A stretch of DNA of 64,000 bases from a virus, in the IMG/VR virus record IMGVR_UViG_3300047409_000266, positions 1-64,000 of that record; one strand, 5' to 3'. The position numbers and the translations under genes were made by a program. This document shows, in pieces, positions 9,968 through 55,206 of this stretch. Below the pieces are notes generated by a model. The model made no database searches. It was given only the letters and a program-made list of their open reading frames with translations, and had not been told where the DNA came from. Each line of letters opens with the position of its first letter. Position 1 is the stretch's first letter.

Positions 9968-12900
9968 ATGTCCCTAGAAGATCAGTTGGGTGCGGTCGAT
10001 CCGCAAAGTGTCGACATAAATCCTCCTGTTCAACAAGCGCCGACGTATGCCCAAAATGTGGAGATAGATCCGCAGACATTTCGCAATAGGCACATTCGTA
10101 AAGGCATCGTCAAAGATCAACCAGTAGACCCGGCCGATGTAGCTGACAGCACTTTCCGTAGCGGCATGCCGGATTTGCCTCCTGGCCGCGTCAATCCGGG
10201 CGAGGTTGCGGATCGCATATTTCGTGATGCGCAAGAGCAGGAACGACGTCGCGCGCAGAAGCCGGCTAAACAACCAGCCGCAGACCTCTCACAGTACGGC
10301 GATCCAATAGTCGATTTGAGTCAGTACGGCGAGGCGGAAGCGCCAGAAGAAAAACCAGAGGAAAAGAAAAAGCCAGACTGGGGTGGCTATGGATCGGTAA
10401 TTGGAAAGTCGGCGGCGCAAGTCCCTACCGATATTGCTGGCGGCCTGTTGCAGGGGGCTGGCCTTATAGGCACCAAGGCTCTCCAAGGAGCAGCCAAATT
10501 CTCGCAAGCCCAACTCGATGTGATGGACCGCATTGATAAGGGCGAAAAAGTTCGCCCTGTAGACGACGCGATTGGCTACGGCGATATGACGCCAGAACAG
10601 CGCAAGGAGTTCCGTACTCAGACCCAGCCGAGACTTGAGAAGGACGCTAAAGCCAAATATCTGGCAGAAGATAATCCGGTCTACCAAGCTGGAAAATCAG
10701 TCAAGGAATTTGGCGAGAAGCAGTTCCCGCTCACTGATACCGAGAAGGGGAGTCTCACTAGCAAAATCACGAAGGGAACGCTGCTTGTAGCGCCACTTGT
10801 CGCGGCTGGCATCGTAGCGCCAGAGGCGGCTATCCCGATCGGCGGCGCTATGTTTGGGCTGACAGGCGCGGCCGATACCTACGAAGATGCTCGCAAAAAA
10901 GGTGCGAGTCCAGAAGATGCGATGACGTCCGCCGGATTATCAGGTGCCGTGAACGCTGCTCTTGGAACGGTTAATCTTGGATTTGTGCTGAAACCGATCC
11001 AGAAGTTTATGCCAGAAACCGAAAGTCTGGCGATAAAATTACTCGCGCGCGCGGGCCAGAGCGGAGTCACGTTTACTGGCATTGGCGAGGCACAAGAATT
11101 TCTTGGTCAACAGATCGGGAAAATCTACAATCCGCAGTACGTTGCAAAACTCAAGGGAGAGGAAGAAGAACTAAAGCTTAAAATAGCTGATGTTGAATCT
11201 GACCCGGCGAAAGCAGCGGCCAATGGCGGGTGGCTTAAGCAGGCTAAGGCCGGTGTTAAGTCCTACGAAGAAGCGATCGATGCGGCCTCTGGTTATTCGC
11301 TAGACGCCCAACGCATGATTGCTAGCTTCGCGACTGGGGCGATCTTGGGCACAGCGCACGGATTGATCGATGCGCGTACAGCGAAGAAACCAGTAACGAC
11401 CCCCGGCGAGGAGGGTACGAACACTGGCGACGAGCGTAAGACGCCTCCACCTCCTCCGCCGCCTGTCACACCAGATGAGACTGGGAATGAGCGTATTACT
11501 CCGCCTCCGCCTCCACAAAATCCAGAGCGCGCAGCACGGGAAGAACGAGCGCGAGAGCATGGACGCGCACGCGAGGCAGCGCGCGAGCAGCAACGTCAGG
11601 AAGAAGCGCGGGCGGCTAACGCTAGCCCAGAAGCTAAGGCAGCCGCACGGCAAGCCAAATACGAGACTTCTTTACGAGAACATTTCAACCTGACGGATGA
11701 GGATATCGCAGCGATCGGCCCAGACGGGCTGGAGGAAGCCCTCCGCGTTCGGAATTTCTTGGAAGATTATGGCATCCCAACAAAAGAGCTTCGCAGCAAG
11801 GAGCAATTCGACAAGGCATTGAAGGAGGCCAGTGATGCCGGCGCAGAGATTCCAGGCAAGGAAACGCCACCTCGCGGATCAACGAAAGAGGACACGGTCC
11901 CTCAGTCATCTGGGAAGTGGGAGGGTCTCAATTACACGCTTGAAACGGACAAGAATAATGTTCGAACAGGAGTAGACCCAGAGACCAGCAAACCATGGCA
12001 ACAAAAGATGGGATCGCCCCACGGATATTGGAATGTGGGGATGGGGGCCGATGGCGGGAAACTCGATGTCTATGTCGGACCTGATCGCACCGAAGGCCCG
12101 AATCAAAGCGTCATCGTCATTGACGAGAAGGATAAAAACACAGGAGCCTTCCGGCAGCACAAGACATTTATTGGTTTCAGCGGGCTAGACGCCATTCAGA
12201 AAGCGATTGTTGCCTACAAGTCTACCGAAGGCAAAAGCCACGGGATGATTGGCGGGATTAGGATTTTCAAGGCCGATGACTTCAAAAAATGGGTTAAGGA
12301 AGGCGACCTCAAGGCCCCAGTCTCTGATGCCATGAAGGCGGCTGAGAAGGCCCCTGGCAACGCAGCCGAGGCCGCCCAAGAGGTTGGGCCTGAAGCAGGC
12401 CACGAACACCACGCAGCCGTCGAAAACGTCCTGCGCGCCGCTGGCGTTGATCCTGCCACCGTGCGGCCGGCGGATGTGGCCAGAGCTAGTGAAATCCACG
12501 CCGAGGAAGGCGCTCCGCCAGATGAGGCTTTCCCAGTCGCCGTAGTGCGCAGTCTGGTGGAAGATGGGCATATCAGCCGAGAGACTGTCGAAAAGGAACT
12601 AGGCCATGCCGAAGCCTCCCAGTTATTGGACGCCATCGCACGCGCTCGGGGCGAGCCACCTATTAAAACGGATGGCGCCACAGCTCGTCGGGAGGCTACC
12701 GCGGTCGCGGGTGGCGAGCCTGCACGCGGCGCTGCGCCTGTCAAAGAAACAGCCACAGGGGGTGAAAAGCCATCTGTCGGTGAAGCCACAGCAGCCGGCC
12801 GTCCCGAGGGTGGGCGGGGCACTGTCGAGCCAGCCACCAGCGGGGAGCGCGTTGCCGAAGCAGGGACTACCGAAGGCAAGCCCGCTCGCGCAGGCCGTAC

Positions 12901-15900
12901 CGCCGCAGCAACTGCAGAGCAAGTTGCCAAGCCTACCAAAGCCACTGTAAGGCCATCAGAAAAGCAGTCCTTGCTGGAATTTATTGCGGCGCGCGGCGGC
13001 ATCGATTCGAGCGATCCGCTCGTCAAGGACATTCAGCAAAGCATCGGACACACCAACAAATTCATTCCAGGCTACGGCACCTTGATTCGCCAAGGCGGCA
13101 AGCGGCTGGACAGTATCCGCGAGGCCGCAGTAGAGGCAGGCTATCTGCATGATCCGGCCGAGCAGCATGGCGGCGTTACCGAGAGCACCATTGTCCATCT
13201 TCTGGATGCGGTCGACAAAGAGCTTAGGGGCGAGAAGCAGTACCGCGCTGGCTACACCCCAGAGACAAAAGAGCCCAGCGTAAGCCAGTTAAAACGTGAT
13301 CGCGATGCTCTCCATGAGGCTATGGCCAAGGAGAAGATTCCGCTTGATTCAAGCACGAAAGAGCATGAGGATTTGGCAGTTGCCATCTTCCATGAGCGCG
13401 GCGGTGATCCGCTCGATGCACTTGAGGCGGCAGCCTTTGAGCTTGAGCGTAATCATGAGGTTCTAACCGCCGAGGCGAAGCAAGACGCCGAAATAACTGA
13501 GGATCTAATCGATGATCTTGACAGGTACGCAGCACCGAAAGCTAGCGAAGCATTACCGGCAGAAGGCGGCAAAACTGCCGAAGGGCCAAAAGGCGCAGAA
13601 GTCCTTCCTGCACAAGAGCGCGGGGTTGCACCTGGGGCTAGCGAGAGCGCAGGGGTCGAAGTCAAGCCTAGCGCCGAAGTCAAAGGCGAGCAGCGACCCG
13701 GAGAGCGAGAACCTGCTAAGTCCACAACCGAGCGAACAAGCGCAGGAGAGCAAGCCGTCCTTCCAGGCGCAGAACGAATCTCCGACCGAGAGCACGCCCA
13801 GCGCGGAGCCGATGAGCGCCTAAAGCCGAAGGCAGAGCAGAAGGCCGCGGACGAAGGCTTGTTCGGAGATGAGAGCAAGCAGACCGACCTGCTCGATGCT
13901 GCGAAGAAGCCAGCCGCCGAACACCCCGGCCTCGTCATCAAGTCTCTTGAGACCGGCAAGGAAACTCACGTCAAGGTAAGGACGCCACAGGTCGAGGCGA
14001 TGCCCGGCACGGCACCGCTGGGTGCGAAGGCCAAGAGCGATTGGACAGAAATCGGGAGAAACGAAACCGGCCACACACTCTATGAAGATCAGCGCGGGGT
14101 GCGATCGTACATTGTTGCTGGCGTGCGTCGTACTGAGCCAGTGCCGATCGTGCCATCGCGTGGTGGTGTCACGCCCTACAAGCCAACGACCAGTGAGCGC
14201 GCGAAACACGGCAATGAATGGCTACTCACATCAGAGGTGAAGGCCGAAGAATCTCCGGATTATCAGCGTGGATGGAATAATGCCAAGGCGGATGGCCCAG
14301 AGAGCGCGCGCCGGCGTGGAGGTTCAGATCAAGAGAAGGCCGGGTATGACGCTTATGTTGATCAAGCGAAAACCACAAAATCTGGAGTAGCCGCCGAAGA
14401 ACCAGACATTAAACTCGCGCGCGCGCTGGCAAACCGCATCAAGAATGGCGAGTCAATCACGAACAAGGTGCTGCAAGATGAAGGCACCGCGGCCTTTGGC
14501 GGCACGCTGGCCGAGGGAAAATTCGATCGCAAGGACGCACACGATGCGCTCGAGCTCGCCGTCAATATGGCAGTACGCGAAGATCCCAAGTTGCGCATAC
14601 CGCCGTATCGTACCGACAATGCACCTTGGAAAGAGACCGTCGATCGTCTTATAAAGATATTGGACAAATTGCCGACCCAGCGCGTCCGCTCCGAGGAACA
14701 ACAGAGCTTCCAACAATTCTCAACACCGCCGCACTATTCGGCCGCTGTGGTCTATGCCGCTAGTCTACGCAAAGGTGACGTGGTCCTCGAACCGTCTGCC
14801 GGGACTGGCAGCTTAGTTGCGGCTGCATCAGCGCCGGGCGTGAAGATCATAGCCAACGAACTAGCACCGCGCCGCGCCGAATTGTTGCGCGCATTAGTGG
14901 GGGATGACGGTCGTGTTTTCACGGAGAACGCCGAGCAACTCGACAATATCCTGCCGGCCGACGTGAAGCCATCAGTGGTGGTGATGAACCCGCCATTCAG
15001 CCAGACCGCAGGCAGGATGGGCGATAAGCGCGACATTACCGTAGGTGCCACGCACATCAAACAGGCTCTTGGGCGGCTGGAGCCGGGCGGGCGCCTTGTG
15101 GCGATCGTCGGCCGCGGCATGTCCATGGAGGCTCCTGCCTTCAAACCATGGTGGAAATTGATTGAGGATGAGTACGCCGTTCGTGCTAATATCGGAGTCG
15201 ACGGCGACGTATACGGCAAATACGGGACCAATTTCGGCACCCGTCTCCTGGTGATCGACAAAGTCGCACCTACATCAGGAGAGAAGCCGATCACCGCCGA
15301 AGCGCACACGGTCGATGACCTGATGCGCGCATTGGAGCCGATCCGCGATGCCAGACCACAAGCCATTGGAGGTAAGCCAGAATTCCAACCTGCTCAACCG
15401 AGCGGCGTGGAAATGGCTCAAGGAGGCGAGGGACGAAGCCCCGCCGCAGCACCTGTACGTCCTGAGCCTAGCGTTCTGGGGGCTGGAGAACGGGGCGGGC
15501 GGGGAGTGGCCACCGAGGGACAAGCCGGCGTTGGAGGAACAGGTGGGGCAACTCCTGGGCTGGAAGCCGGAAAACGCCCTGGCGTGGCTGCTGTCGAACC
15601 CGAACGGGCCGGAACAGAACGAGCAGGGGCAAAGCTTGTTGAGGGCACTGCAAAGGGCGAGCAGCCCAAAGGGGGCGGCGGCGTTGGTCCTCAACCAGAT
15701 TTACAGCAGACAGCAAAGCCAGAATCCGGCACTGCAACCAGCAGCGAGCGAATTGAGCTAGAGCACGCCGAGCCGGGCACGCAGACAGCGTCCGAGATCA
15801 GCGAAAGTCTGTACGAGGAATATCAACCACAGCGCGTCAAGGTTCCTGGTGCCAAGAAGCATCCTGGTCCGCTTGTGCAATCTGCAGCTATGGCGTCGGT

Positions 15901-18900
15901 CGAACCGCCGCTTCCGAAGTACAAGCCAGCACTACCGCGCGAGGTGATCGACAAGGGTTTGCTTTCGAACGCCCAGCTTGAGCCGGTCATCTATGCCGGC
16001 GAAGCACATTCCGCGATGCTCCCGGCCGCCGAGAACGAGACACCGAAACGCCGCGGCTACTTCATTGGCGACGGTACTGGCGTCGGCAAAGGCCGCGAGG
16101 TTGCCGGCATCATCCTCGACAACTGGCAGCAAGGACGTACGAAGGCGGTATGGGTTTCCGAGAAGCGCAAACTGCTCAACGACGCCAAACGCGACTGGTC
16201 GGGCCTAAAGCAAAATCCGAACGTCTTGTTCGACATTGGCAAGGTCAAGTCTGGTGAACCGATCGGCGCGGAGCGTGGTATCGGCTTTGTCACCTACGAT
16301 ACGCTCAAAGGTGGCATGTCAGATCAAGCATCGCTCGCGCGTGGCGGGTTTGTGCGCAAGCAGCCGGTTTCCGTTAATGGGCAACCGGGAACTGTGCAAA
16401 AGATTGAGCCTGGGCGCCGCGGGCAACCGCCACAAGTTACGGTCGCTCTCGACAACAAAACGACAGTGACGGTGCCAGGAAACGAGGTAACAGTTAGCGA
16501 AGCGATGACGGTTAAATCCCGCGTCGACCAGCTTGCCGATTGGCTTGGAAAAGACTTCGACGGTGTGATCGCGTTCGATGAAGCCCACAACATGGGCAAT
16601 GCGATAACGACAAAGGGTGAGCGCGGCACGAAGGACGCGGCGCAAAAGGCGCTCGCTGGACTTGCGCTACAAGATCGCTTGCCGAATGCCCGCGTCGTCT
16701 ATGTCTCAGCGACAGGTGCGACGGAGGTTTCCAATCTGTCTTATGCCGATCGCTTGGGATTGTGGGGACGCGGGACGCCGTTTGCTTCTCGCGACAAGTT
16801 CATCACGGAAGTTGAGAAGGGTGGTATCGCGGCGATGGAGCTCATCGCTCGCGACATGAAACAGCTTGGCATCTACATCGCGCGCAATCTGTCCTACGAC
16901 GGTGTCGAATACAATCGCCTCGAACACAAGCTCGATCCAAACCAGCGTGAGATTTACGACACCGTTGCCGAGGCATGGCAGATCGTTCTGAGAAACATCC
17001 ATGCTGCCTTAGAGGAAACAGGCGGCAACAAGGACGCACGCGCCAAGTCTGCGGCAATGTCGGCGTTCTGGGGTGGGCACCAGCGGTTCTTTAATCAGAT
17101 TGTCACCTCGCTACAGATGCCATCCGTCATCAAGGCGGCAGAAAAGGATTTGAAGGAGGGGCGCCAAGTCGTCCTGCAACTGACTAACACGAATGAAGCA
17201 TCGCAAGAGCGCGCCGCCGCGAAGGCCGAGACAGCCGAGGATATCGAGGATCTCGATATCACGCCGCGCGATCAGATTATTCAACTGGTCGAGAAGTCGT
17301 TCCCAACGCAGGAATATGAACAATATCGCGACGAGAACGGCAATGAGCGCTCGCGACCAGTAGCCGATGCAAATGGCAACGCCGTACAGAACAAAAAAGC
17401 CGTAGCGATGAAAGAGGCGCTGATCGATCGGCTTGCCTCAGTGCGCGTGCCGCAGGGCCCGCTCGATATGATCCTAGATCACTTTGGCACCGATGTTGTG
17501 GCCGAAGTGACAGGCCGCAAGCGCCGCTTTGTGATGAAGGAGGACGAAAAGACCGGCCAGAAAAAGCGCATGGAGGAAAGCCGGCCAGGATCGTCCAACC
17601 AGTCCGAGACCGATACATTTCAGGCTGGCAAGAAACAGGTGCTAGTGTTTTCAGAGGCTGGCGGCACTGGTGCCTCGTACCATGCCGACAATAGTTCAGG
17701 TTCAAAAGACGCGCGCCGCTCGCACTATCTGGTGCAAGCAGGTTGGCGAGCCGACAAGGCCGTGCAGGGTTTTGGCCGTACACACCGTACCAATCAGGCA
17801 TCGGCGCCGATCTTTCACCTCGTTACCACTGACCTCGATGGGCAGAAGCGTTTCATATCATCGATCGCGCGGCGCCTCGGGCAACTTGGGGCACTGACGA
17901 AGGGCGAACGCAAGGCCGGCGATCAGGGCATCTTCTCGGCGCGCGACAATCTGGAAAGCAAGGAAGCACATCAGGCAATATCCCAGTTCTACAATGATCT
18001 CCTGCATGACAACATCGAGGGTGTCCGCATCGATGATTTTGAGGCGCAGACTGGCCTCTCTTTGCGGATCAAGGACGACGAAGGCCGTGTTACTGGGGCC
18101 AAGCAGGAACTGCCGCCGATAACGCAATTCCTCAACCGTCTGCTGTCGCTCAAGATTGATCTGCAGAACAAGGTGTTCCGCGCGTTCTCGGATAGGCTCG
18201 ATCACGTTATCGAGGTACGCCAACAGGCCGGGCTGCTCGATGTTGGCCTTGAGACTGTGAAGGCTGACAAGATCGCGAAAGAGACCGAGGAAGTAGTCCA
18301 TACCGCCAAGGAGAGCGGCGCCGAGACCAAATACGTCAAACTTGCGGTCTCGGACAAGTTTCACCCAACGCCGTTCAAATTCGTTGCCGACAATCCGAAC
18401 CGCAAAATAGTGTCGTGGGCGAAAAGCCCACACGGCAAGGTGTACGGAATTGCGGAAGCGCCAGACATTACCCAGGCCGATACTGGACGCATCATCCCGC
18501 AATACCGCATCATCAGCCCTGTTTCTCCGTCGCGTCTCATCGCACGAGACAACGTAGATCGCCGCGATACCGAATGGAAGAAGATCGAGAAACAGGACGC
18601 CAAGGATCTGTGGCAGGTTGAGACCGAGAAAGCTCCTGAATTTGTCACTCGCGATCTGCATCTCATCACGGGCGCAATCCTACCGGTGTGGGATCGCCTC
18701 AAAGGTAGTCCGCGGGTGGTGCGGCTGCAGACAGACAAGGGCGAGCGTTTTCTTGGGCGCGTCATTCCGGAATCGCACATTTCAGATACACTGCAGGCGC
18801 TTGGCGCGGAGACCAAGGCTAAGGTTGTCGAGCCTACTGCGCTGCTTTCGCAACTCATGGCCGGTGCACAAGCGAAGCTCGCAAATGGCTGGAGGTTCAA

Positions 18901-21900
18901 GCGATCGCTGGTGGCTGGCGAGCACCGTATCGAATTGACGGGCCCAACGTCGTTCTCGGAAGGCCAACAAGTTAAAGCGGACGGCGTATTCACCGAGCGT
19001 ATCAACTACACCGTACGATACTTTGTGCCGACCGATCCAGAGGCTGGCGCGCGCGTGCTGGCGCGGCTGATTGAGCACAGACCGGTGATTGAACTTGGCA
19101 AGGCCGGCGGCGAGGAAGATGACATTACCGCTGCGATGGCTCTGCCCGCAAAGCCAAAAAGTGAATGGTATTATTCCGCTGTCGCAAACGCGATCGATAC
19201 AGCGAAGCATGAGAAAGCCGCGCCTAATCAATGGCTTGGAATGTTGCGCAACACCCCAGGTGTGAAGCCGGAAGAAATGAAATGGCTCGGGCTTGAGGAA
19301 TGGCTGCGCGATCATAAGGGCCCCGTCAGTAAGCAGGAACTCTCCGACTACGTCCGCGCCAATCAGATTGAGTTGAAGGAGGTAGAGAAGGGCATAAAAC
19401 AGGATTCTCCTAGGCTTGAAGAATTGCGCGAAAACCCACGCCGCACACCGACTGAGGAAGATGAATTTTCGCGGCTCCTCGCGGAGGCCGACCCAGAACG
19501 TGAAATAGCCAGGATTGATGCTGGTATTCGAGTTTTGTCAAACTGGCCAGATGATCCATCTACCGCACGCAATCCAGTCAATCAGGCGGAATTGGATATA
19601 CTGTCGGCACGCTGGGAGGAATTGCAATCCTCAACCGTGCAAGCACGCGGCCCGACCAAATTCGGCACCTACACTCTCCCCGGAGGCGAGAACTACCGCG
19701 AATTGCTGCTGACGCTGCCGGAGAAGAAGAATCCAGCGCGCACTGCGGTCGAGGATATCAACAAGAAACTCATCGACAAATACGGTGGCCTTCAAGATGC
19801 GTTCAATAGATGGACGCCAGAGGAAAACGCTGAGTTTGATCGCATCCACAATGATGCCTATGGCATCGAGAGAGATTCAAATCCGCCGAACTATCACTCC
19901 TCCCACTGGGACGAGCCCAACGTCCTCGCGCATGTTCGCTTCAATGACCGTGTGATCGACGGCAAGAAAACGCTGTTCGTTGAGGAAGTGCAAAGCGACT
20001 GGCACCAGCAAGGCAAGCGCCGCGGTTATGGTGAGCAGCGACCAGATACGTCCAAGTGGGTTGCAGAACGAGTTACGACATCAAATGAGCGAGCTATCCG
20101 GCAATTTGCTGACAAAAATCCTCCATATTGGAAAGTCTTAGATGAGGATGGCAAAACTCTAAAATATATCTTCGCGGCAGACGAAGCCGAAGCCATCAAG
20201 AGCGTCGCAGATCAACTTACAGAGCGCGGTGTCCCCGACGCTCCATTCAAAACCACATGGCCAGAACTCGCAATGAAGCGGATGATCCGCTACGCGGTGG
20301 AGAATGGCTACGACAAGATCGCGTGGACACCAGGCGATGTGCAGGCCGAGAGATACGATCTGAGCAAGCAGATCGACGGCGTTACATATTTTACAAAGAC
20401 CGGCAATCTCTATGCGACCAAGGGTATTGACACGATTTTTAGCAAGCATGGCGTCAAGCCAGAACAATTGAGCGATTATATCGGTAAGGATGCAGCCGAC
20501 AAAGTTTTGAATCAACCAGATCGAAAGTACCAACATTCGGAAACGGAAGGGCCAGCACACGAGATTAGCGGTGCATCTCTCAAAGTCGGCGGCGAGGGGA
20601 TGCGCGGTTTCTACGACCAAATCCTTCCTGCCGCAGTCAATAAGTTGGTCAAGAAATACGGCGGGAAGGTTGGGCAAGGACAATTGCCTGAACGCGGAGC
20701 TTGGGAAGTGTATGCCAGCGAAGGCGGACCTTTCCTCGGCAATGCTCGTACATTCGGCGAAATGCGAGACGCGCGTAGAGAAGGCAAGTTCATCAAGGAA
20801 AATCCGGACGCCGAAGGCCGCAGGGTTCACTCCCTCGACATTACCCCGCAACTCCGTGATGCCGCACTTGCCCAAGGATTTCCTGTATTCCAGGCTAAAC
20901 CAGCCGCAGTACAACGTTCGCAGCCCAGCCGTGGTCTGACTGAGGCGGCGGAAACAAACCGTTTGAAGGCCGCCGAGCAGCGCCGCGAACTGCAATTCAC
21001 CGATTTTGCGAAACGCGCGGAGGTCGAGAAGGCCGTCTTGGCCATGCTCGATCACATGACCGGTGGTCGGTTCTCGCGCGGGCAGGCCCATGTGTTGCTG
21101 CCTGATACGATCCCAGGCTCGGCCGAATCTGGCTATGGCAACCTCAATCTCGCCCCGAATCGTGGCGGCACCTACAGCCCGGTCTACGAAGTCATTAGGG
21201 TAGCGCTTTCCGATCCTGACTACCCCAACCCGTTCCGCGGTGTGGCGCACGAAGCCACCCACATGATTCTAGACCACTTTGCGACCGATCAGGAGCGCGC
21301 GTTGCTCCAGCATCAGCGCCCAAGGATGGTCGAGCGCGTTGCCAAGGACCGCAATCTCACATTCGATCAGGCCAATTCGCTGTCCCAGTACGAGATCGAG
21401 GCACACTACGGCGAAGCCTATATCGATGATCGCGCCAAGGGCGGTAACGGTGCCGGGGTGCATATCGGTCTGCGTCGATTGTTCGAGCGCATCATGGATT
21501 TCTTCCGCCGCGTGCGCGCGTGGTTGAACGGCCACGGCTTCCGAACCATCGACGACATCTATTCAGACATCTACGAAGGCAAGATGGGCCAGCGGGAATC
21601 GCGCCGCGACAAGGGCGAAGAATCAAAACTGATAAAGGACATCAGGGCAGAGCAGGCGGCGGAGAAGGCGAAGGCTGAGAGGGCGAGGCCAACGGCATCA
21701 GCCGAGCCACCGATTGAGGCCGCCATGGCGCGGCCATCCAGGCGCCCAGCGGGAGCCGTAAGCCGATATCCAGTAGCGGAGACTATCTCCGATATATTGG
21801 AAGCGAAAAATTGGCCGAAGCTTGCCAAAATCTCGCAATCTATCAGAATAGGTGGCCTCAACCCCATCGAGCTTCGCGTAAAGGTGCAAGATAAATTCTT

Positions 21901-24463
21901 GCGCTGGAAACGGATTGAAGAAGCAGTTGGGCGCGAAACTGGGCAGCCAATCCCGGAGGATATGCAGACTTATCTCCGTGAAAGCCTTTACTATGGGCGC
22001 ACTGGCGAGCAGCTCGAGCGCCTCGACCAGAATCATATCGATCCACTGATTGATGACATCAAGAAACGCGGCCTTACGCTCGAAAAGGTCGATCAGTTTC
22101 TGATGGCGCGGCACGCCGAAGAACGAAATGAGAAACTGCGCAAGATTAATCCATCGATCGCTGATCCATCCGGTATGTCGGATGCCGAAGCACGGCGCAT
22201 CATGAAGGAGATATATGATAGTCCGAAGCGCAGCGACTACGCTGCAATCGGTAAGCGGGTTCGGGCGCTGACGACGCAAACGCTAGAAACTTTGGTCAAA
22301 GGTGGCCTTATCAGCAATGAGACTGCGGCGAGATGGGCAGAAGCATACAAATTCTATGTCCCGCTGCGTGGTTGGGCGGAAGGGCCAGACGATCCTAACT
22401 TCGGCACCGGTCGGGGCTTCGACGTGCGAGGCGAAGAAAGTAAACAGGCGCTCGGGCGCAGTTCTGTTGCCGACAGTCCGCTTAGCTATGTGCTTCTGCA
22501 AGCGCAGAACGCGATAATCAGGGCGGAGAAAAACCGCGTTGGACAGACAGCACTCAACTTCGTGCGCAACCATCCAGATCCAGGGCTTTGGAAGGTCGAT
22601 AAGGGAAACACATCGCGCAAAATCGACACACAGACTGGATTGGTGAAAGACATCACCGAGCCCATGTGGCACATGCAGGACAACGTCTTTGCCGTCAAAG
22701 AGGACGGCAAGGTGCATTACATCAATTTCCAAGGAGACTACGGCGAGGCACTGGCGCGTGGGCTCAACAATCTCGGCACCGCGAACATGGGTCCGATCAT
22801 GCGGTTTGTGTCGACGCTGACGCGCACGATGGCGCGGCTCTCCACCTCATGGAATCCGGATTTTATGATCCCGAATTTCGTGCGTGACGCAGGCGAAGCC
22901 TTTATCAATCTGCAAGCTCAAGATCAAAAGAAGTTTGTCAAACAGTTTTCAAAGCATCTGATTCCGTCCATCGGCGGAGCGTTCAATGCGTTGAAAGGTG
23001 GCACTACGGGCAAATACACAGAGGCATTCCACGAATTTGATAAGGCCGGCGGGCGCATCCGATTCTTCGGCATGGAGAACGTGGAGGATATCAAGACCAA
23101 TATCGAGCGCAAGATGAAGCGGCTTGAGGGCGGCGTCATGAACAGCGCCGCGGTTGCTGGCAGCAAGCTCATGTCAGCGATTGAAATCGCCAACGGTGGT
23201 ATTGAGAATGCAACACGTCTGGCGGCGTTCATGGCCGGACGCGATGTTGGTTTAACCAAAGAGAAGTCGGCCTCGATCGCGCGAGAGTTGACGGTCAATT
23301 TTAACCGTAAGGGCGAATACGGGCAGATTCTCTCTGGCCTCTATATGTTTGCTAACGCCTCTCTGCAGGGATCTACGCGCATGGCGCAGGCGCTATCGTC
23401 ATCGCCGAAAGCGCGGCGTATGGCTTATGCGCTGGCAGCAGCAGCAGCAGCAATGGCGCTGTATAATCTCAGTTGGGGCGGAGATGATGAGGACGGTGTC
23501 CCGTTCTATCTCAAAATTCCTCCCTGGGAGCGAGATACCAATCTAATCCTGATGTGGCCCAAGGGCATGGGTATGGACGGCAAGTACGTCAAACTGCCTT
23601 TGCCATACGGCTATTCGTTCTTTGCTACGATTGGTGCGCGGTCAATGACGATGCTGAGCGGCAAAGAGAAGGCTTCGAAGGCTGTTCCAGCGATGGCCAA
23701 GTCGGTATTCGATGCGTTCGATCCGCTCGGGCGCGACGAAAATTCGCTCGCGCAGTTCGCACCGACTATCGTTAAGCCGGCCATCCACATTTACACCAAC
23801 GAGAATTGGACCGGCCGGCCGATCAATCCATCGCAGGAGCCGTGGAACAAGCACGAGCCGCGCTCATCACGTTCGTTTAGGTCGGCATCGGAAGGCTCAA
23901 AGACTGTGGCCGAGGGATTGAATGCGTTGACTGGGGGCACCAAGCGCGAGCCTGGATGGGCAGATATTTCTCCCGGCAGTCTCGATTACCTATTCGGAAC
24001 CATAACCGGCGGCCTCGGGCGCTTTGTCGCGAACACCGCTGGAACCGTTGGCCGAGCCTACGAGGGGCAGGAGTGGAAGATCAACAAGACACCAATCGTG
24101 CATCGCTTCTTCGGTGAGATAGATCCTGCCGCGAGTCGTGCGATCTATTTTGAGGAACGCGAGAAGGTGAATGCGGCAAGCGAGCGCCTTCAAGGATATA
24201 GGAAGGACCACGACCCACAGGCCGTCCAGCGTTTCCGCAAGGAAAACCAAGCCGAGATTTCGAGCCACGAGATATTTAAGCGAACCGACGAGCAGCGGAA
24301 GAAAATTAATGAACAAGTCGACCGCATAAAGGCAAACAAGGATCTGTCTGCCGCCGATCGAGAAACGCAGCTTAAAGTGCAGGAAAAGCGCGAGTTGGAC
24401 CTGATGATGCGTGCACGCAAACAGATCGAGACTCGCAGAAACGCGCCAACGGCACTGCCTTAA
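9968..24463 (+). CDS. giant polyvalent ejection protein, DarB-like (InPase-like, N6-adenine MTase, Strawberry-notch SF2 helicase, HExxH metallopeptidase, LPD38-like C-terminus)
   Basis: GADGGKLDVYVGP; FSTPP, VLEPSAGTG, NPPF; GDGTGVGKG, DEAH, QGFGRTHR; EEVQSDWHQ; HEATH; YVKLPLPYGY...ENWTGRPI. Confidence 0.9.
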   Translation: MSLEDQLGAVDPQSVDINPPVQQAPTYAQNVEIDPQTFRNRHIRKGIVKDQPVDPADVADSTFRSGMPDLPPGRVNPGEVADRIFRDAQEQERRRAQKPAKQPAADLSQYGDPIVDLSQYGEAEAPEEKPEEKKKPDWGGYGSVIGKSAAQVPTDIAGGLLQGAGLIGTKALQGAAKFSQAQLDVMDRIDKGEKVRPVDDAIGYGDMTPEQRKEFRTQTQPRLEKDAKAKYLAEDNPVYQAGKSVKEFGEKQFPLTDTEKGSLTSKITKGTLLVAPLVAAGIVAPEAAIPIGGAMFGLTGAADTYEDARKKGASPEDAMTSAGLSGAVNAALGTVNLGFVLKPIQKFMPETESLAIKLLARAGQSGVTFTGIGEAQEFLGQQIGKIYNPQYVAKLKGEEEELKLKIADVESDPAKAAANGGWLKQAKAGVKSYEEAIDAASGYSLDAQRMIASFATGAILGTAHGLIDARTAKKPVTTPGEEGTNTGDERKTPPPPPPPVTPDETGNERITPPPPPQNPERAAREERAREHGRAREAAREQQRQEEARAANASPEAKAAARQAKYETSLREHFNLTDEDIAAIGPDGLEEALRVRNFLEDYGIPTKELRSKEQFDKALKEASDAGAEIPGKETPPRGSTKEDTVPQSSGKWEGLNYTLETDKNNVRTGVDPETSKPWQQKMGSPHGYWNVGMGADGGKLDVYVGPDRTEGPNQSVIVIDEKDKNTGAFRQHKTFIGFSGLDAIQKAIVAYKSTEGKSHGMIGGIRIFKADDFKKWVKEGDLKAPVSDAMKAAEKAPGNAAEAAQEVGPEAGHEHHAAVENVLRAAGVDPATVRPADVARASEIHAEEGAPPDEAFPVAVVRSLVEDGHISRETVEKELGHAEASQLLDAIARARGEPPIKTDGATARREATAVAGGEPARGAAPVKETATGGEKPSVGEATAAGRPEGGRGTVEPATSGERVAEAGTTEGKPARAGRTAAATAEQVAKPTKATVRPSEKQSLLEFIAARGGIDSSDPLVKDIQQSIGHTNKFIPGYGTLIRQGGKRLDSIREAAVEAGYLHDPAEQHGGVTESTIVHLLDAVDKELRGEKQYRAGYTPETKEPSVSQLKRDRDALHEAMAKEKIPLDSSTKEHEDLAVAIFHERGGDPLDALEAAAFELERNHEVLTAEAKQDAEITEDLIDDLDRYAAPKASEALPAEGGKTAEGPKGAEVLPAQERGVAPGASESAGVEVKPSAEVKGEQRPGEREPAKSTTERTSAGEQAVLPGAERISDREHAQRGADERLKPKAEQKAADEGLFGDESKQTDLLDAAKKPAAEHPGLVIKSLETGKETHVKVRTPQVEAMPGTAPLGAKAKSDWTEIGRNETGHTLYEDQRGVRSYIVAGVRRTEPVPIVPSRGGVTPYKPTTSERAKHGNEWLLTSEVKAEESPDYQRGWNNAKADGPESARRRGGSDQEKAGYDAYVDQAKTTKSGVAAEEPDIKLARALANRIKNGESITNKVLQDEGTAAFGGTLAEGKFDRKDAHDALELAVNMAVREDPKLRIPPYRTDNAPWKETVDRLIKILDKLPTQRVRSEEQQSFQQFSTPPHYSAAVVYAASLRKGDVVLEPSAGTGSLVAAASAPGVKIIANELAPRRAELLRALVGDDGRVFTENAEQLDNILPADVKPSVVVMNPPFSQTAGRMGDKRDITVGATHIKQALGRLEPGGRLVAIVGRGMSMEAPAFKPWWKLIEDEYAVRANIGVDGDVYGKYGTNFGTRLLVIDKVAPTSGEKPITAEAHTVDDLMRALEPIRDARPQAIGGKPEFQPAQPSGVEMAQGGEGRSPAAAPVRPEPSVLGAGERGGRGVATEGQAGVGGTGGATPGLEAGKRPGVAAVEPERAGTERAGAKLVEGTAKGEQPKGGGGVGPQPDLQQTAKPESGTATSSERIELEHAEPGTQTASEISESLYEEYQPQRVKVPGAKKHPGPLVQSAAMASVEPPLPKYKPALPREVIDKGLLSNAQLEPVIYAGEAHSAMLPAAENETPKRRGYFIGDGTGVGKGREVAGIILDNWQQGRTKAVWVSEKRKLLNDAKRDWSGLKQNPNVLFDIGKVKSGEPIGAERGIGFVTYDTLKGGMSDQASLARGGFVRKQPVSVNGQPGTVQKIEPGRRGQPPQVTVALDNKTTVTVPGNEVTVSEAMTVKSRVDQLADWLGKDFDGVIAFDEAHNMGNAITTKGERGTKDAAQKALAGLALQDRLPNARVVYVSATGATEVSNLSYADRLGLWGRGTPFASRDKFITEVEKGGIAAMELIARDMKQLGIYIARNLSYDGVEYNRLEHKLDPNQREIYDTVAEAWQIVLRNIHAALEETGGNKDARAKSAAMSAFWGGHQRFFNQIVTSLQMPSVIKAAEKDLKEGRQVVLQLTNTNEASQERAAAKAETAEDIEDLDITPRDQIIQLVEKSFPTQEYEQYRDENGNERSRPVADANGNAVQNKKAVAMKEALIDRLASVRVPQGPLDMILDHFGTDVVAEVTGRKRRFVMKEDEKTGQKKRMEESRPGSSNQSETDTFQAGKKQVLVFSEAGGTGASYHADNSSGSKDARRSHYLVQAGWRADKAVQGFGRTHRTNQASAPIFHLVTTDLDGQKRFISSIARRLGQLGALTKGERKAGDQGIFSARDNLESKEAHQAISQFYNDLLHDNIEGVRIDDFEAQTGLSLRIKDDEGRVTGAKQELPPITQFLNRLLSLKIDLQNKVFRAFSDRLDHVIEVRQQAGLLDVGLETVKADKIAKETEEVVHTAKESGAETKYVKLAVSDKFHPTPFKFVADNPNRKIVSWAKSPHGKVYGIAEAPDITQADTGRIIPQYRIISPVSPSRLIARDNVDRRDTEWKKIEKQDAKDLWQVETEKAPEFVTRDLHLITGAILPVWDRLKGSPRVVRLQTDKGERFLGRVIPESHISDTLQALGAETKAKVVEPTALLSQLMAGAQAKLANGWRFKRSLVAGEHRIELTGPTSFSEGQQVKADGVFTERINYTVRYFVPTDPEAGARVLARLIEHRPVIELGKAGGEEDDITAAMALPAKPKSEWYYSAVANAIDTAKHEKAAPNQWLGMLRNTPGVKPEEMKWLGLEEWLRDHKGPVSKQELSDYVRANQIELKEVEKGIKQDSPRLEELRENPRRTPTEEDEFSRLLAEADPEREIARIDAGIRVLSNWPDDPSTARNPVNQAELDILSARWEELQSSTVQARGPTKFGTYTLPGGENYRELLLTLPEKKNPARTAVEDINKKLIDKYGGLQDAFNRWTPEENAEFDRIHNDAYGIERDSNPPNYHSSHWDEPNVLAHVRFNDRVIDGKKTLFVEEVQSDWHQQGKRRGYGEQRPDTSKWVAERVTTSNERAIRQFADKNPPYWKVLDEDGKTLKYIFAADEAEAIKSVADQLTERGVPDAPFKTTWPELAMKRMIRYAVENGYDKIAWTPGDVQAERYDLSKQIDGVTYFTKTGNLYATKGIDTIFSKHGVKPEQLSDYIGKDAADKVLNQPDRKYQHSETEGPAHEISGASLKVGGEGMRGFYDQILPAAVNKLVKKYGGKVGQGQLPERGAWEVYASEGGPFLGNARTFGEMRDARREGKFIKENPDAEGRRVHSLDITPQLRDAALAQGFPVFQAKPAAVQRSQPSRGLTEAAETNRLKAAEQRRELQFTDFAKRAEVEKAVLAMLDHMTGGRFSRGQAHVLLPDTIPGSAESGYGNLNLAPNRGGTYSPVYEVIRVALSDPDYPNPFRGVAHEATHMILDHFATDQERALLQHQRPRMVERVAKDRNLTFDQANSLSQYEIEAHYGEAYIDDRAKGGNGAGVHIGLRRLFERIMDFFRRVRAWLNGHGFRTIDDIYSDIYEGKMGQRESRRDKGEESKLIKDIRAEQAAEKAKAERARPTASAEPPIEAAMARPSRRPAGAVSRYPVAETISDILEAKNWPKLAKISQSIRIGGLNPIELRVKVQDKFLRWKRIEEAVGRETGQPIPEDMQTYLRESLYYGRTGEQLERLDQNHIDPLIDDIKKRGLTLEKVDQFLMARHAEERNEKLRKINPSIADPSGMSDAEARRIMKEIYDSPKRSDYAAIGKRVRALTTQTLETLVKGGLISNETAARWAEAYKFYVPLRGWAEGPDDPNFGTGRGFDVRGEESKQALGRSSVADSPLSYVLLQAQNAIIRAEKNRVGQTALNFVRNHPDPGLWKVDKGNTSRKIDTQTGLVKDITEPMWHMQDNVFAVKEDGKVHYINFQGDYGEALARGLNNLGTANMGPIMRFVSTLTRTMARLSTSWNPDFMIPNFVRDAGEAFINLQAQDQKKFVKQFSKHLIPSIGGAFNALKGGTTGKYTEAFHEFDKAGGRIRFFGMENVEDIKTNIERKMKRLEGGVMNSAAVAGSKLMSAIEIANGGIENATRLAAFMAGRDVGLTKEKSASIARELTVNFNRKGEYGQILSGLYMFANASLQGSTRMAQALSSSPKARRMAYALAAAAAAMALYNLSWGGDDEDGVPFYLKIPPWERDTNLILMWPKGMGMDGKYVKLPLPYGYSFFATIGARSMTMLSGKEKASKAVPAMAKSVFDAFDPLGRDENSLAQFAPTIVKPAIHIYTNENWTGRPINPSQEPWNKHEPRSSRSFRSASEGSKTVAEGLNALTGGTKREPGWADISPGSLDYLFGTITGGLGRFVANTAGTVGRAYEGQEWKINKTPIVHRFFGEIDPAASRAIYFEEREKVNAASERLQGYRKDHDPQAVQRFRKENQAEISSHEIFKRTDEQRKKINEQVDRIKANKDLSAADRETQLKVQEKRELDLMMRARKQIETRRNAPTALP
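15348..15761 (+). CDS. putative overprinted gene in +1 frame inside the giant gene
   Basis: 137-aa globular-looking ORF with GGAG upstream, spanning the MTase-helicase linker. Confidence 0.45.
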   Translation: MPDHKPLEVSQNSNLLNRAAWKWLKEARDEAPPQHLYVLSLAFWGLENGAGGEWPPRDKPALEEQVGQLLGWKPENALAWLLSNPNGPEQNEQGQSLLRALQRASSPKGAAALVLNQIYSRQQSQNPALQPAASELS

Positions 24464-51260: not shown

Positions 51261-51794
51261 GTGATTATCCTAGCGCTTGATCTCGCGACCGCTACTGGAT
51301 TTGCTTTCGGCGGGGACGGCGCATGCCCAGTTTCAGGGACTGTCATCCTCAAGAAGCCGCCCGAGCCACAAGATGTAGCGTTCGGGAACATGCAGGCTTG
51401 GTTGACCGAAAAGCTAGAATCGGTGCGGCCGGTGCTGATCGTCAAAGAGGCCCACCTCCCCCTGCAGGGCTTCCGGGATCGGTTTAATTCGCAAAAGTCA
51501 GTTGAGATGGCGCTGGGCCTGAACGGCGTTGTCAGGGGCATCGCACACCGGTTTGGTGTACCTGTTGAGGACATACACCCCGCCACAGTACGCAAGCATT
51601 TTCTCGGTGTCGGCCGCGTCGGCAACCGCGAGGAAACCAAGGCTGCAGTGGTGAAGCGCTGCCACATGCTCAAACTGATGCCGGCGACGTGCTTTTCGCA
51701 TGACCGCGCCGATGCCTTGGCTATATTCTCGTGGGCGGCCGCTACATACGGTAGGCGCGCGCCGCGGGAACTCGTGATGTTCGGAGAGTCCTGA
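51261..51794 (+). CDS. RuvC-like Holliday junction resolvase
   Basis: ILALDLATATG...IVKE...VRKHFLG.G...K...DRADALAI. Confidence 0.8.
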   Translation: MIILALDLATATGFAFGGDGACPVSGTVILKKPPEPQDVAFGNMQAWLTEKLESVRPVLIVKEAHLPLQGFRDRFNSQKSVEMALGLNGVVRGIAHRFGVPVEDIHPATVRKHFLGVGRVGNREETKAAVVKRCHMLKLMPATCFSHDRADALAIFSWAAATYGRRAPRELVMFGES

Positions 51795-51971
51795 TCGTTT
51801 CGGGGCCGAAACGAATCTCAACATCTAGTATGTTCTGATATCCACACCACTAGATATAGATGTTCGTTTCGCACCCGAAACGAACTGCGATTCGCTACAC
51901 CCACTACATCTAGTAGTCGCCCACCGATTAGAGACACAAGATATAGATCGATCGTTTCGCTACCGAAACAA
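51795..51971. repeat. three TCGTTTCG-N4-CGAAAC palindromes alternating with two pairs of NrdR-box-like sites
   Basis: palindromes at 51795, 51864, 51952; box cores at 51819, 51850, 51904, 51937. Confidence 0.75.
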
Positions 51972-52228
51972 GTAAATATGGCAATTAATACATTGCCTTA
52001 CTGTTGTTAGAAATTCGTTTGCAGTATCAGTTGGGATTGACAGGCTTCTGCAAATCAGTTTTACGCGCGCGCGGCCCCGGTGACGAATCGATAGGAACAG
52101 GCCACCTCACAAGAAAGTGGCCTTCAGGGAAGCAAGGGTAAGAAGTAAGGAACGACGTTTCGGTATGCTCATTTATTGCGGATTGCCGATACGGATTTTG
52201 GTTTTTTGAGCATACGGAGGGGGAACAG

Positions 52229-53737
52229 ATGGAATTGTGGCCACACCAAACTGAGGCTTTAGAGGCGCTGCGCCAGACGGTAGCGCAAGGGGTGAAGCGA
52301 ATCGTTTTGCAGGCGCCAACGGGTAGCGGAAAGACGAGGCTCGCCGCGGCGATCGTTGAGGGAGCGCAGAAGAAGGGCAACAAATTAGCGTTCGTAGTAA
52401 GTTCGATCAGCCTCATCGATCAAACCATAGAGGCGTTCGGAGAACAGGGAATCACCGGCATGGGGGTGATTCAGGCCGATCACATCATGACGGATTGGGC
52501 GCAGCCGGTGCAGATTTGCTCGGTTCAGACGCTGCATGCGCGAGAAAAGTTTCCGGATGCTCAGATCGTGGTGTTCGACGAATGCCATGTGCTGCATGAA
52601 TTTCACAAGAAGTGGCTGACAGATCCAGCGTGGCAAAGCGTGCCGTTTATCGGATTGAGTGCCACGCCATGGAGCAAGGGATTAGGCAAGTATTTTGAGA
52701 CGCTCTTGATTGCTGAAACGACGCAGGGGCTGATCGAGAAGGGATTGCTATCGAAATTCAGGGTGTTCGCCACAGGCCATCCGAATCTCTCAAAGGTGAA
52801 GATCGTTGCTGGCGATTACCACGAAGGCCAGCTTTCTGCGGCGATGCAGGAAGGCACGCTAACGGCCGATATCATCGAGACATGGAAGAAGCGTTGGGGC
52901 AAAGGCAAGACGTTCGTTTTCGGTGTCGACTGTGCCCATGCGCAAGCCCTGCAGGCGCGGTTTCAGGCCGAGGGTGTGTCTTGTGCCTACCAGGATGCGC
53001 GAACGTCCATCCTCGATCGCGCGGCCATCAAACGCCAGTTCCACAATGGTGAGGTCGACGTCATCTGCAATGTGGCAACGCTGACGGTGGGGGTGGACTA
53101 CGATGTGCGCTGCATTGTGCTGGCGCGGCCGACGCGCTCGGAGATGCTCTTTGTCCAGATTATTGGTCGAGGGCTGCGCACTGCAGAGGGGAAAAACGAG
53201 TGCATTATCCTTGATCACAGCGACACAACGGCGCGCCTGGGGTTTGTGACTGACATTCACCACGATCATCTTCACGACGGCAAGCCAGTCGAACGCGCTG
53301 AGCGCAAGCCATCGTTGCCAAAGCCTTGCCCCGTGTGCTCATGCCTAGCACCAAAGGTGAACCTGACATGCCCAAACTGCGGATACGTCTACAGGATCAT
53401 TAGCTCGTATGTTGAGGAAGATGGCGAGCTCGCGGAGATCACGGCTGGCGAGCGCTTCAAACACGGCAAGAAGCGTCACTACACGATGGCCGAGAAGGAG
53501 CGGTTCTATGCGATGCTGCTCGGGTATGTGGCTGAAAAGTCATATAAAATCGGCTGGGCAGCAATGAAATACAAGGACAAGTTTGCCGTTTTTCCCAATC
53601 ACATGAACCATGTGAGCGCGATGACGCCAGACATGGCCATGCGATCTTGGATCAAGCACAAAAATATTCAGTGGGCCAAGAGCAAGAGACGTTTAGCGGA
53701 TGAGACTGAGAAAACGCTAGGAACGCACCCACGATGA
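52229..53737 (+). CDS. SF2 DEAD/DEAH helicase with zinc finger (RadD/YejH-like)
   Basis: APTGSGKT, DECH, GLSATP, QIIGRGLR, CPVC...CPNC. Confidence 0.9.
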   Translation: MELWPHQTEALEALRQTVAQGVKRIVLQAPTGSGKTRLAAAIVEGAQKKGNKLAFVVSSISLIDQTIEAFGEQGITGMGVIQADHIMTDWAQPVQICSVQTLHAREKFPDAQIVVFDECHVLHEFHKKWLTDPAWQSVPFIGLSATPWSKGLGKYFETLLIAETTQGLIEKGLLSKFRVFATGHPNLSKVKIVAGDYHEGQLSAAMQEGTLTADIIETWKKRWGKGKTFVFGVDCAHAQALQARFQAEGVSCAYQDARTSILDRAAIKRQFHNGEVDVICNVATLTVGVDYDVRCIVLARPTRSEMLFVQIIGRGLRTAEGKNECIILDHSDTTARLGFVTDIHHDHLHDGKPVERAERKPSLPKPCPVCSCLAPKVNLTCPNCGYVYRIISSYVEEDGELAEITAGERFKHGKKRHYTMAEKERFYAMLLGYVAEKSYKIGWAAMKYKDKFAVFPNHMNHVSAMTPDMAMRSWIKHKNIQWAKSKRRLADETEKTLGTHPR

Positions 53738-54030: not shown

Positions 54031-54333
54031 CTTTTCAGCACGAACCAGTTTAATCATTCCTCCCTATGTCGGAATCGTGCGGAGACGAACCGGTGTACCG
54101 GACACTAGATATTCGTGTTGAGGTGCGGCGGGTTTACGATGACGGCTCTCTGCTCATTCGCATTCCGATGCCATCAGGTGCGTGGTCGTACGTGGTGATT
54201 GACCCCAAGAATCCAGCGCACGTCTGCCTTGGCCTTCATAAGTGAAAGAATGCGTTAAGGTTTATGGCTTACCGTCAAATCTCTCAGATTTGTCTGGCCT
54301 TAAACCTCACCGCGTAAACCTCACAGGTTGTCG

Positions 54334-55206
54334 ATGCTGGCTACAGCTAGGCGCGGCCGTCCACCTCAAAATGGCGATCGCTACGACTGTGGGAAACTCA
54401 AGCCGCGCAAGGCGGCAAAGCCAACAGCAGAGCCCATGTCAGGGGCGCTATGGCAGCGCATCAGACAGCACGGGCGCAAAGTCACCATGGACCCCAGGCT
54501 GGCCACCGAACTAGGCCGCCTCAATTGCTTCGCAGAACTAACAAATCTCCAGACCGCGGCAGGCTTTCGAGTAGCCGAGATTTACGGGCGTTTCGAGGGT
54601 CTACGCAAGTTGCGCCGGGTGCCCAAGGGCCAATCGATAGATGGTGGGTTCGGGGAGGCTGGGCTAGCTGAAGAACTGATGGCGCCAGCGACATTGAGTG
54701 ATCTTGAGGAAAGCATACGATCAGCGAGTGAAGCATTCGACAAGCTGCAAGAGCTCATAGACGATGAGGCCACACTGGTGCACCTCGAACCTCGATCGTT
54801 ACGCGCAACGCTTGAGCAACTTTGCGTCGAGGACAAGAGCATAAACCCGACATTGTATGATGCCATTCGTCAGTGCCTAGAGGCTGTAGCCCTCAAGTTT
54901 GGGGTCACGAACGAGGACCGCACACAGGATACCAACCGCCGCGCCGGCACACCGCTGCACTTCAACACCCATCTCGACAGCCCATCAGACACTAAGCCAC
55001 AGGCCCCTCGTCCAGCCAATCTCGGCCGTGAGAGCTTCATCAAAGTGGTTTGCGCACTCAACCAGACGCTCACCGTCCATGACGCCGCGATCGCCTGGGA
55101 GACGCAGCAGACGCTAGAGCAGCGCGCGCGTTTTATCCGTGACAAGGCCAAAATCCGCTCTGGTGCTACCGTTGACGAGCGCGCCGCTGCATTGCGAGTG
55201 AGATAA
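54334..55206 (+). CDS. putative late-gene regulator / antiterminator (DUF6456-like)
   Basis: RRGRP...G.R...GKLK...LGRL...LT..Q..AG; Q-like position before a terminator. Confidence 0.5.
   Translation: MLATARRGRPPQNGDRYDCGKLKPRKAAKPTAEPMSGALWQRIRQHGRKVTMDPRLATELGRLNCFAELTNLQTAAGFRVAEIYGRFEGLRKLRRVPKGQSIDGGFGEAGLAEELMAPATLSDLEESIRSASEAFDKLQELIDDEATLVHLEPRSLRATLEQLCVEDKSINPTLYDAIRQCLEAVALKFGVTNEDRTQDTNRRAGTPLHFNTHLDSPSDTKPQAPRPANLGRESFIKVVCALNQTLTVHDAAIAWETQQTLEQRARFIRDKAKIRSGATVDERAAALRVR

Follow-up and report, generated by a model that had tools for sequence, protein, structure and literature searches.

Two pairs of NrdR-type boxes interleaved with parS-like palindromes ahead of a helicase gene in a phage genome without ribonucleotide reductase

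The genome of an uncultured phage that lacks ribonucleotide reductase (RNR) carries two textbook-grade pairs of NrdR boxes, which alternate with three parS-like palindromes in the non-coding gap ahead of a helicase gene. NrdR is a bacterial repressor that senses the levels of DNA precursors (dNTPs), and it is regarded as dedicated to RNR genes. The identification of the boxes as NrdR-type is strongly supported by the weight matrix, the box spacing and the close likeness to published sites. Below we describe the array and its surroundings, the evidence on the boxes, and the functions that the array may serve, together with the natural counterparts of the palindromes.

Array layout and gene neighbourhood

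The phage record (IMGVR_UViG_3300047409_000266) is 96,528 bp long with 55% GC and is complete according to CheckV; the window, the whole stretch to which our positions refer, is its first 64 kb. The array lies in a gap of 434 bp (51795-52228), and the genome has no larger non-coding stretch. Immediately upstream is a gene for a RuvC-like Holliday junction resolvase (51261-51794, plus strand; phrog_159, E = 4e-12), and farther upstream are minus-strand recombination genes (RecT-like, Gam-like and NinB-like) and a DNA methyltransferase gene. Immediately downstream is a gene for an SF2 DEAD/ResIII helicase (52229-53737, plus strand; recognised by Pfam and by PHROG as phrog_16), the first in a block of like-oriented genes that extends to a virion structural gene at 57931. 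The gap sets the helicase gene apart from the genes for recombination, the methylase and the RuvC-like resolvase.

Several neighbouring products can be described further. The helicase has a C-terminal zinc ribbon, CPVC...CPNC (CxxC...CxxC; window 53320-53440, residues about 365-400), which is a possible DNA-recognition module. The 292-aa protein encoded after the helicase (window 54328-55206) is one of a family, lacking any Pfam domain, that numbers at least 69 hypothetical proteins and takes in one protein of Bradyrhizobium sp. STM 3843 at 30% identity; its IMG/VR relatives do not adjoin a helicase. By far the largest ORF of the phage has 4,831 codons (window 9968-24463, plus strand). Many ORFs near the array matched no known family in the Pfam and PHROG searches.

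The elements of the array run in the order P1, b1, b2, P2, b3, b4, P3, where P is a palindrome and b a box. Palindrome P1 (GTTTCGGGGCCGAAAC, 51797-51812) has 7-bp arms, with extended arms TCGTTTCG / CGAAACGA; P2 (GTTTCGCACCCGAAAC, 51866-51881) forms a 10-bp stem, GTTCGTTTCG / CGAAACGAAC, when its flanks are included; and P3 (GTTTCGCTACCGAAAC, 51954-51969) again has the form GTTTCG-N4-CGAAAC. The NrdR-type boxes, each of 16 bp, are b1 (TCTCAACATCTAGTAT, 51816-51831, with its core CAACATCTAG at 51819), b2 (CCACTAGATATAGATG, 51847-51862, core CTAGATATAG at 51850), b3 (CCACTACATCTAGTAG, 51901-51916, core CTACATCTAG at 51904) and b4 (ACACAAGATATAGATC, 51934-51949, core CAAGATATAG at 51937). A preliminary description of this DNA had given the four cores, with coordinates that proved exact, and three GTTTCG-N4-CGAAAC palindromes, which start at 51797, 51866 and 51954; its box spacing of 31 and 33 bp and the alternation of boxes with palindromes are both borne out.

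Core starts at distances of 31 and 33 bp leave spacers of 15 and 17 bp between the boxes, and centre-to-centre distances of 31, 54 and 33 bp place all four boxes near the same face of the helix. When the whole 96,528-bp record was scanned with a degenerate box pattern and with the palindrome, both were confined to this gap. The spacer of the first pair holds a DnaA-box-like ATATCCACA (51838-51846, plus strand; 8/9 matches to TTATCCACA). An AT-rich stretch (51965-52040) has 32-37% GC, against 55% for the genome; inside it, between the array and the helicase gene, is a terminator-like hairpin, GGCAAT-N6-ATTGCC (51980-51997). Another hairpin, with a 10-bp stem (GGTATGCTCA / TGAGCATACC-like; window 52160-52218), ends at the ribosome-binding site of the helicase gene. 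Taken over its whole length, the leader RNA of this gene folds no better than shuffles do (z = -0.03), an Rfam search of the gap gave no match, and comparison of the region with phage and plasmid DNA gave no similarity match.

The boxes each face their nearest palindrome, and the resulting 35-nt inverted repeat is 83% complementary. Alignment of the two units in both orientations leaves only the arms of the palindromes and the cores of the boxes unchanged, while the spacers between boxes and the central four palindrome bases vary; the alignment acts as an internal footprint of two separate recognition elements. The distance between palindrome and 16-bp box is only 3-4 bp on three of the four sides, and it is the box flanks next to a palindrome that are degenerate; b1, b2 and b4 are off consensus in their outer flanks. 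The short gaps and the degenerate facing flanks together suggest that two binders may touch or compete.

Evidence that the boxes are NrdR-type

Positions C4 and G13 of the box, which are reported to be crucial for NrdR recognition (supplement to PMC12051234), are kept in all four phage boxes. The boxes of an NrdR operator are 15-16 bp apart, with 14-17 bp tolerated according to binding data, and the phage spacers of 15 and 17 bp fall inside the tight-binding range that was measured for four NrdR proteins. The published regular expression for NrdR pairs (PMC12051234) fits the four boxes at both spacings. As a stand-alone test this expression was rejected, with 3 pairs found in the genome against 2.7 expected by chance; because it is too loose at that chance frequency, we built an independent weight matrix.

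The matrix was trained on bacterial nrd promoters only. Its source was the RNR large-subunit genes in about 100 Pseudomonadota genomes and in five named Alphaproteobacteria, from which 39 upstream regions (nrdA/nrdJ) were taken. The best pair at a distance of 30-33 bp was sought iteratively, with the IUPAC consensus alone as the starting point, and 30 of the 39 regions were kept, those with a pair above the 90th percentile of a coding-sequence null. The 30 training pairs are mostly 31-32 bp apart and have the consensus ACACAATATATAGTGT. On this matrix, which represents Pseudomonadota boxes and may not be in the box dialect of the phage's host, b1 to b4 score 11.6, 12.1, 16.0 and 12.5 bits and rank 8, 6, 1 and 4 among about 96,500 positions in the genome; the real sites have a median of 12.45 bits, with quartiles of 9.3-16.05. 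The pair scores are 23.7 bits (b1 plus b2) and 28.6 bits (b3 plus b4), against a median of about 25 for real pairs, whereas the best pair in each of 200 shuffled genomes averages 12.8 bits and reaches 22.5 at most. The matrix is decisive in upholding the fit to the NrdR consensus that had been read from the cores: both pairs score as real pairs do, and higher than the best pair of any shuffled genome.

Rank 2 in the genome goes to a solitary NrdR-type box, CCACAAGATGTAGCGT (51366-51381; 15.9 bits), inside the RuvC-like gene. No second box pairs with this site, which is some 450 bp upstream of the array and is possibly auxiliary, or possibly due to chance.

Three of the four phage boxes have at least 13 consecutive bases in common with published boxes, two of which are boxes from binding assays. 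The core of b1 is the exact core of a synthetic consensus box (PMC12051234), and ACACAAGATATAG of b4 is identical to 13 consecutive bases of the Streptococcus thermophilus nrdHEF box. Box b3 is identical at 14 of 16 bases to box 2 of Escherichia coli nrdHIEF, mutation of which drastically lowers NrdR binding at the nrdHIEF site. CCACTAGATATAG of b2 recurs in predicted boxes upstream of Pararhodobacter nrdJ (L033) and of a Pseudomonadota nrdA (L066). We consider it likely that NrdR would bind the array.

Compared with known NrdR operators (E. coli nrdAB, nrdHIEF and nrdDG; Streptomyces coelicolor nrdRJ), the phage sites are alike in their 16-bp palindromic boxes with C4 and G13, in spacers of 15-17 bp that set the boxes about three helical turns apart, and in matrix scores within the real range. 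Two pairs in one region, as here, are also seen at Listeria nrdAB, which has a distal and a proximal pair. The differences lie in the setting. Bacterial NrdR operators adjoin an RNR operon and their boxes overlap the -35 and -10 elements of the promoter, whereas the phage array stands ahead of a helicase gene in a genome without RNR, its pairs overlap no recognisable core promoter, and each pair is bracketed by another palindrome.

The preliminary description had noted no RNR nearby, and this holds for the whole 96.5-kb record: Pfam searches for the class I/II large subunit, the small subunit, class III RNR and the ATP-cone (PF02867, PF00268, PF13597 and PF03477) found none of the four. With neither RNR domains nor an ATP-cone in the record, the phage encodes neither an RNR nor an NrdR.

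This phage is not alone in carrying such pairs. A strict pair pattern, CACNANATNTNGTG twice with a 16-bp spacer between the boxes, matched at least 119 contigs in IMG/VR, while the reversed pattern matched 2 contigs and an out-of-phase pattern with a 21-bp spacer matched 1. Since the strict pairs are far above both controls, phage-borne pairs keep to the spacing that the NrdR tetramer requires. GC content spans 30 to 70% across the 80 loci listed among the matches, and the spacers of these loci are unrelated. Of 100 ORFs beside phage pairs, those that can be recognised encode portal, terminase, integrase, ligase and similar proteins, and no RNR family occurs among the best 25 of the 31 families found there. 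An RNR large subunit is encoded anywhere in the record in 5 of 50 strict-pair records, and in 1 of the 14 with a completeness of 90% or more.

A TTGAC in the spacer between the boxes is the usual layout of an NrdR-controlled promoter. This motif is present in 19 of 76 distinct phage pairs against 4.4% of control windows, an excess that indicates promoter control in many phages, and the pairs of other phages are usually directly upstream of genes, often with a -35 element in the spacer. Some also have a lineage-specific inverted repeat alongside. ATAAAA-N6-TTTTAT lies 12-15 bp from the strict pair in ten AT-rich phages (L084, L094, L095, L104-L106, L110, L134, L137 and L152), three of which also have CGAAAA-N7-TTTTCG, and a perfect inverted repeat with 6-bp arms is found within 45 bp at 25 of the 80 strict-pair loci, against about 15% expected. 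The present array is like these other phage pairs in being phased and away from RNR genes. It differs in that two pairs alternate with three GC-containing, parS-like palindromes, in that the spacers have no -35 element, in that each box is weaker on the side next to a palindrome, and in that the array is not common to any relative found.

A 2025 preprint with genome-wide data for E. coli and Pseudomonas aeruginosa reports phased NrdR pairs restricted to RNR operons, and full-text searches of the literature returned no paper on NrdR boxes at non-RNR phage genes.

Possible functions of the array

Our preferred explanation, a tentative one, is that the array is an NrdR-controlled gate at the entry to the helicase/late block which also titrates NrdR. 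The four boxes would be operators for host NrdR, forming two pairs that each bind a tetramer, with the boxes of a pair about three helical turns apart. NrdR bound to the array together with dATP and ATP would hinder transcription into the helicase/late block, or its initiation, and the gate would open once replication drains dATP or once phage genomes outnumber the few NrdR tetramers. The same titration would derepress the host RNR genes, which would suit the phage because it has no RNR of its own. The three palindromes would be sites for a second, putative dimeric protein, and this protein and NrdR would probably contact or exclude each other at the adjoining sites. We infer all three of NrdR binding, the direction of control and the identity of the palindrome binder.

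The preliminary description had offered two readings, a sponge for host NrdR and a control region for a helicase or origin. Control of the helicase or of an origin would fit the position at the head of the block and the use of pairs in other phages; a sponge would fit a phage that lacks RNR and in which no DNA polymerase was seen among the annotated ORFs (annotation covered a minor part of the genome). Gate, decoy and origin functions are inseparable by computation.

Several points count against a gate. The outer flanks of three boxes stray from the consensus. The terminator-like hairpin separates the array from the helicase gene, so the array could belong to the 3' end of the upstream operon. 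Repression under plentiful dNTPs is not obviously useful logic for a replication gene. Finally, the locus has no comparative support because no relative was found with the array: neither boxes nor palindromes are present at helicase homologues of 58-60% identity (L002, L004-L006), at a prophage copy with 49% identity (L038) or at relatives of the 292-aa protein (L202-L207). The genomes with the nearest helicase homologues also lack the palindrome, the RuvC-like protein has no relatives in IMG/VR or among cultured phages, and a composite pattern of palindrome and box had no match in IMG/VR.

Promoter searches bear on control in cis. No sigma-70-like promoter was found over either pair, and the nearest TTGACA is at 52037, about 90 bp downstream of b4, with a poor -10. 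The 96.5 kb contain neither TTGACA-N16-18-TAnnnT nor the alphaproteobacterial CTTGAC-N16-18-CTATAT type, so the promoters of this phage are of a non-canonical type, and the lack of a promoter at the pairs is weak evidence because the canonical promoter is absent genome-wide.

The array may instead be a pure decoy that controls no gene in cis, an unlikely reading in our estimate. As the phage replicates, its pairs would soak up NrdR, with the solitary box at 51366 adding to them, and the host RNR would be derepressed, raising the dNTP supply for an RNR-less phage. The absence of RNR of every class from the record and of a polymerase from the annotated ORFs speaks for such a decoy, as do the lack of a recognisable promoter overlapping the pairs, the hairpin between array and helicase, and the presence of two pairs, not one. 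Yet the pairs of other phages, being mostly directly upstream of genes and often having a -35 in the spacer, point to cis control as their usual role; a sponge of two pairs per genome would be modest; and a sponge has no need of tight interleaving with a second set of palindromes.

A replication origin modulated by NrdR is a rather improbable third reading. Phage and plasmid origins, lambda ori for example, combine iterons with an AT-rich unwinding element. Here the palindromes would serve as iterons bound by an initiator of the phage, which might be the helicase through its zinc-ribbon C-terminus or else some neighbouring protein, the stretch at 51965-52040 would unwind, and NrdR would tune firing by dNTP supply. 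The array resembles origins of the lambda type in that its repeated binding sites adjoin both an AT-rich stretch and a replication gene, the helicase gene directly downstream, and one DnaA-like box lies in the spacer of the first pair. The 35-nt inverted repeat also folds strongly as a single strand (z = -5.9), but this follows from the sites themselves being palindromic, which makes the inverted repeat automatic. Against an origin, DnaA-like boxes are not enriched, with 3 in 64 kb against 8.5 expected by chance; the GC skew has no switch at the array; no initiator family was recognised nearby in Pfam, PHROG and PDB sequence searches; and the relatives whose helicases are 58-60% identical do without the array. 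In contrast to origins of the lambda type, moreover, the sites are palindromic and not direct iterons, and half of them are boxes for a host repressor. Support for an origin is weak.

The palindromes and their possible partner

Pairs of GTTTCG-N4-CGAAAC at 45-75 bp from each other occur at 14 loci in 185,579 species genomes, against about 0.1 expected by our own estimate. In Limimaricola, Acuticoccus and Meridianimarinicoccus, arrays of GTTTCGCnnGCGAAAC either separate RepA(ParA)-like from RepB(ParB)-like genes or follow them, and GTTTCGCnnGCGAAAC is also present in a Pararhodobacter locus and in one alphaproteobacterial MAG. Its copies are concentrated on one contig per genome, and a control pattern was absent. 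At two loci (L024 3876-4097 and L026 2092-2197), four to seven copies of GTTTCGCnnGCGAAAC, mostly 30 bp apart, lie between the RepA-like and RepB-like genes. These plasmid arrays are a repABC-type parS centromere, a variation on the GTT...AAC theme.

The phage palindromes match GTTTCGCnnGCGAAAC at 12-13 of 14 positions; at positions 7 and 10 they agree in 2 of 6 cases, about chance level, so that the likeness to parS rests on the 12 bases used in the search. Relative to the repABC consensus, the outer GTT and AAC are present in the phage palindromes and the central GC is not. Set beside the alphaproteobacterial RepA/RepB parS GTTTCGCnnGCGAAAC (general consensus GTTNNNNGCNNNNAAC), the phage sites are alike in their arms, arm spacing, 16-bp length and clustering. 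They differ in their centres, which are GGGC, CACC and CTAC where parS has CnnG, and in their distances of 69 and 88 bp where copies on plasmids are 30 bp apart. Furthermore, parS loci have partition genes, whereas the phage genome has none: searches for PF02195 and PF13614, and one with a custom RepB profile, gave no match in the phage. RepB/ParB-type parS sites thus appear to be the closest natural counterparts of the palindromes, and a RepB/ParB-like binder is a lead, not a finding, because the centres differ, the additional positions agree at chance level and ParA/ParB are absent.

Searches of the neighbouring proteins against Pfam, PHROGs and PDB sequences recognised no palindrome-binding protein. 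Other alphaproteobacterial motifs were considered for the region; the LexA box GTTC-N7-GTTC and the CtrA box TTAA-N7-TTAA are absent by eye, and a count of GANTC sites gave no enrichment.

The palindrome is found in unrelated contexts too (L003, L020 and L023). One of these, L003 (2680-3060), belongs to an AT-rich IMG/VR record of 98 kb (IMGVR_UViG_3300045988_058538), where three GTTTCGTAAACGAAAC are interleaved with TTATTGGTCTACCAAAAAAT repeats upstream of a small Xre-like HTH gene; the layout is origin- or centromere-like, and the record has no ParB. Separately, contigs of one Myxococcales MAG (L014 1-200, L017 1-150 and L019 797-910) have 66-bp tandem repeats with GTTTCGCAGGCGAAAC and GTTTCGCTGGGCGAAAC; these open several of its contigs and are a repeat family that breaks assembly.

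These data bear on the proposal, which we find very doubtful although it does not exclude the others, that the palindromes are centromere-like sites for the RepB/ParB of a replicon resident in the host, the NrdR boxes serving a separate function. In a carrier state the phage genome would then be distributed to daughter cells as plasmids are; alternatively, it would interfere with plasmid partition. The excess of paired-palindrome loci, the arrays at RepA/RepB-like genes, their concentration on single contigs and the fit to the repABC theme all favour this proposal; the phage's want of ParA and ParB, the chance-level agreement with the plasmid consensus at positions 7 and 10 and the occurrence of the palindrome in unrelated contexts tell against it.

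We likewise think it very unlikely that the boxes are read by a phage-encoded protein other than NrdR, their likeness to NrdR boxes being convergent. The many neighbouring ORFs without a known family would leave room for such a protein, and the boxes are repeats of one another. But a chance match in core, flanks and pair spacing, all at the level of real sites, is very improbable, and IMG/VR phages of 30 to 70% GC have the same boxes with NrdR-specific phasing, which a universal host factor fits better than many unrelated proteins. Least probable of all is a trans-acting hub, in which multicopy phage DNA would soak up NrdR while parS-like sites would load the RepB/ParB of an alphaproteobacterial replicon, with the phage segregated like a plasmid or the plasmid destabilised and the two proteins competing on adjacent sites.

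An alphaproteobacterial host for the phage is plausible, the hints being weak: a Bradyrhizobium protein that is 30% identical to the 292-aa protein, and the resemblance of the palindromes to parS. Helicase homologues are distributed among phages and some Pseudomonadota.

Judged from the DNA, the phage probably reads or soaks up the dNTP sensor of its host, and our scans of IMG/VR show phased NrdR pairs to be a common feature of phage DNA at a distance from RNR genes. The parS-like palindromes add a putative second partner that may compete with NrdR. If NrdR does bind, phages would be reading or manipulating the host dNTP sensor to time their replication or late genes, or to raise the supply of precursors. 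If true, this would mean a wider NrdR regulon and a new kind of coupling between phage and host.
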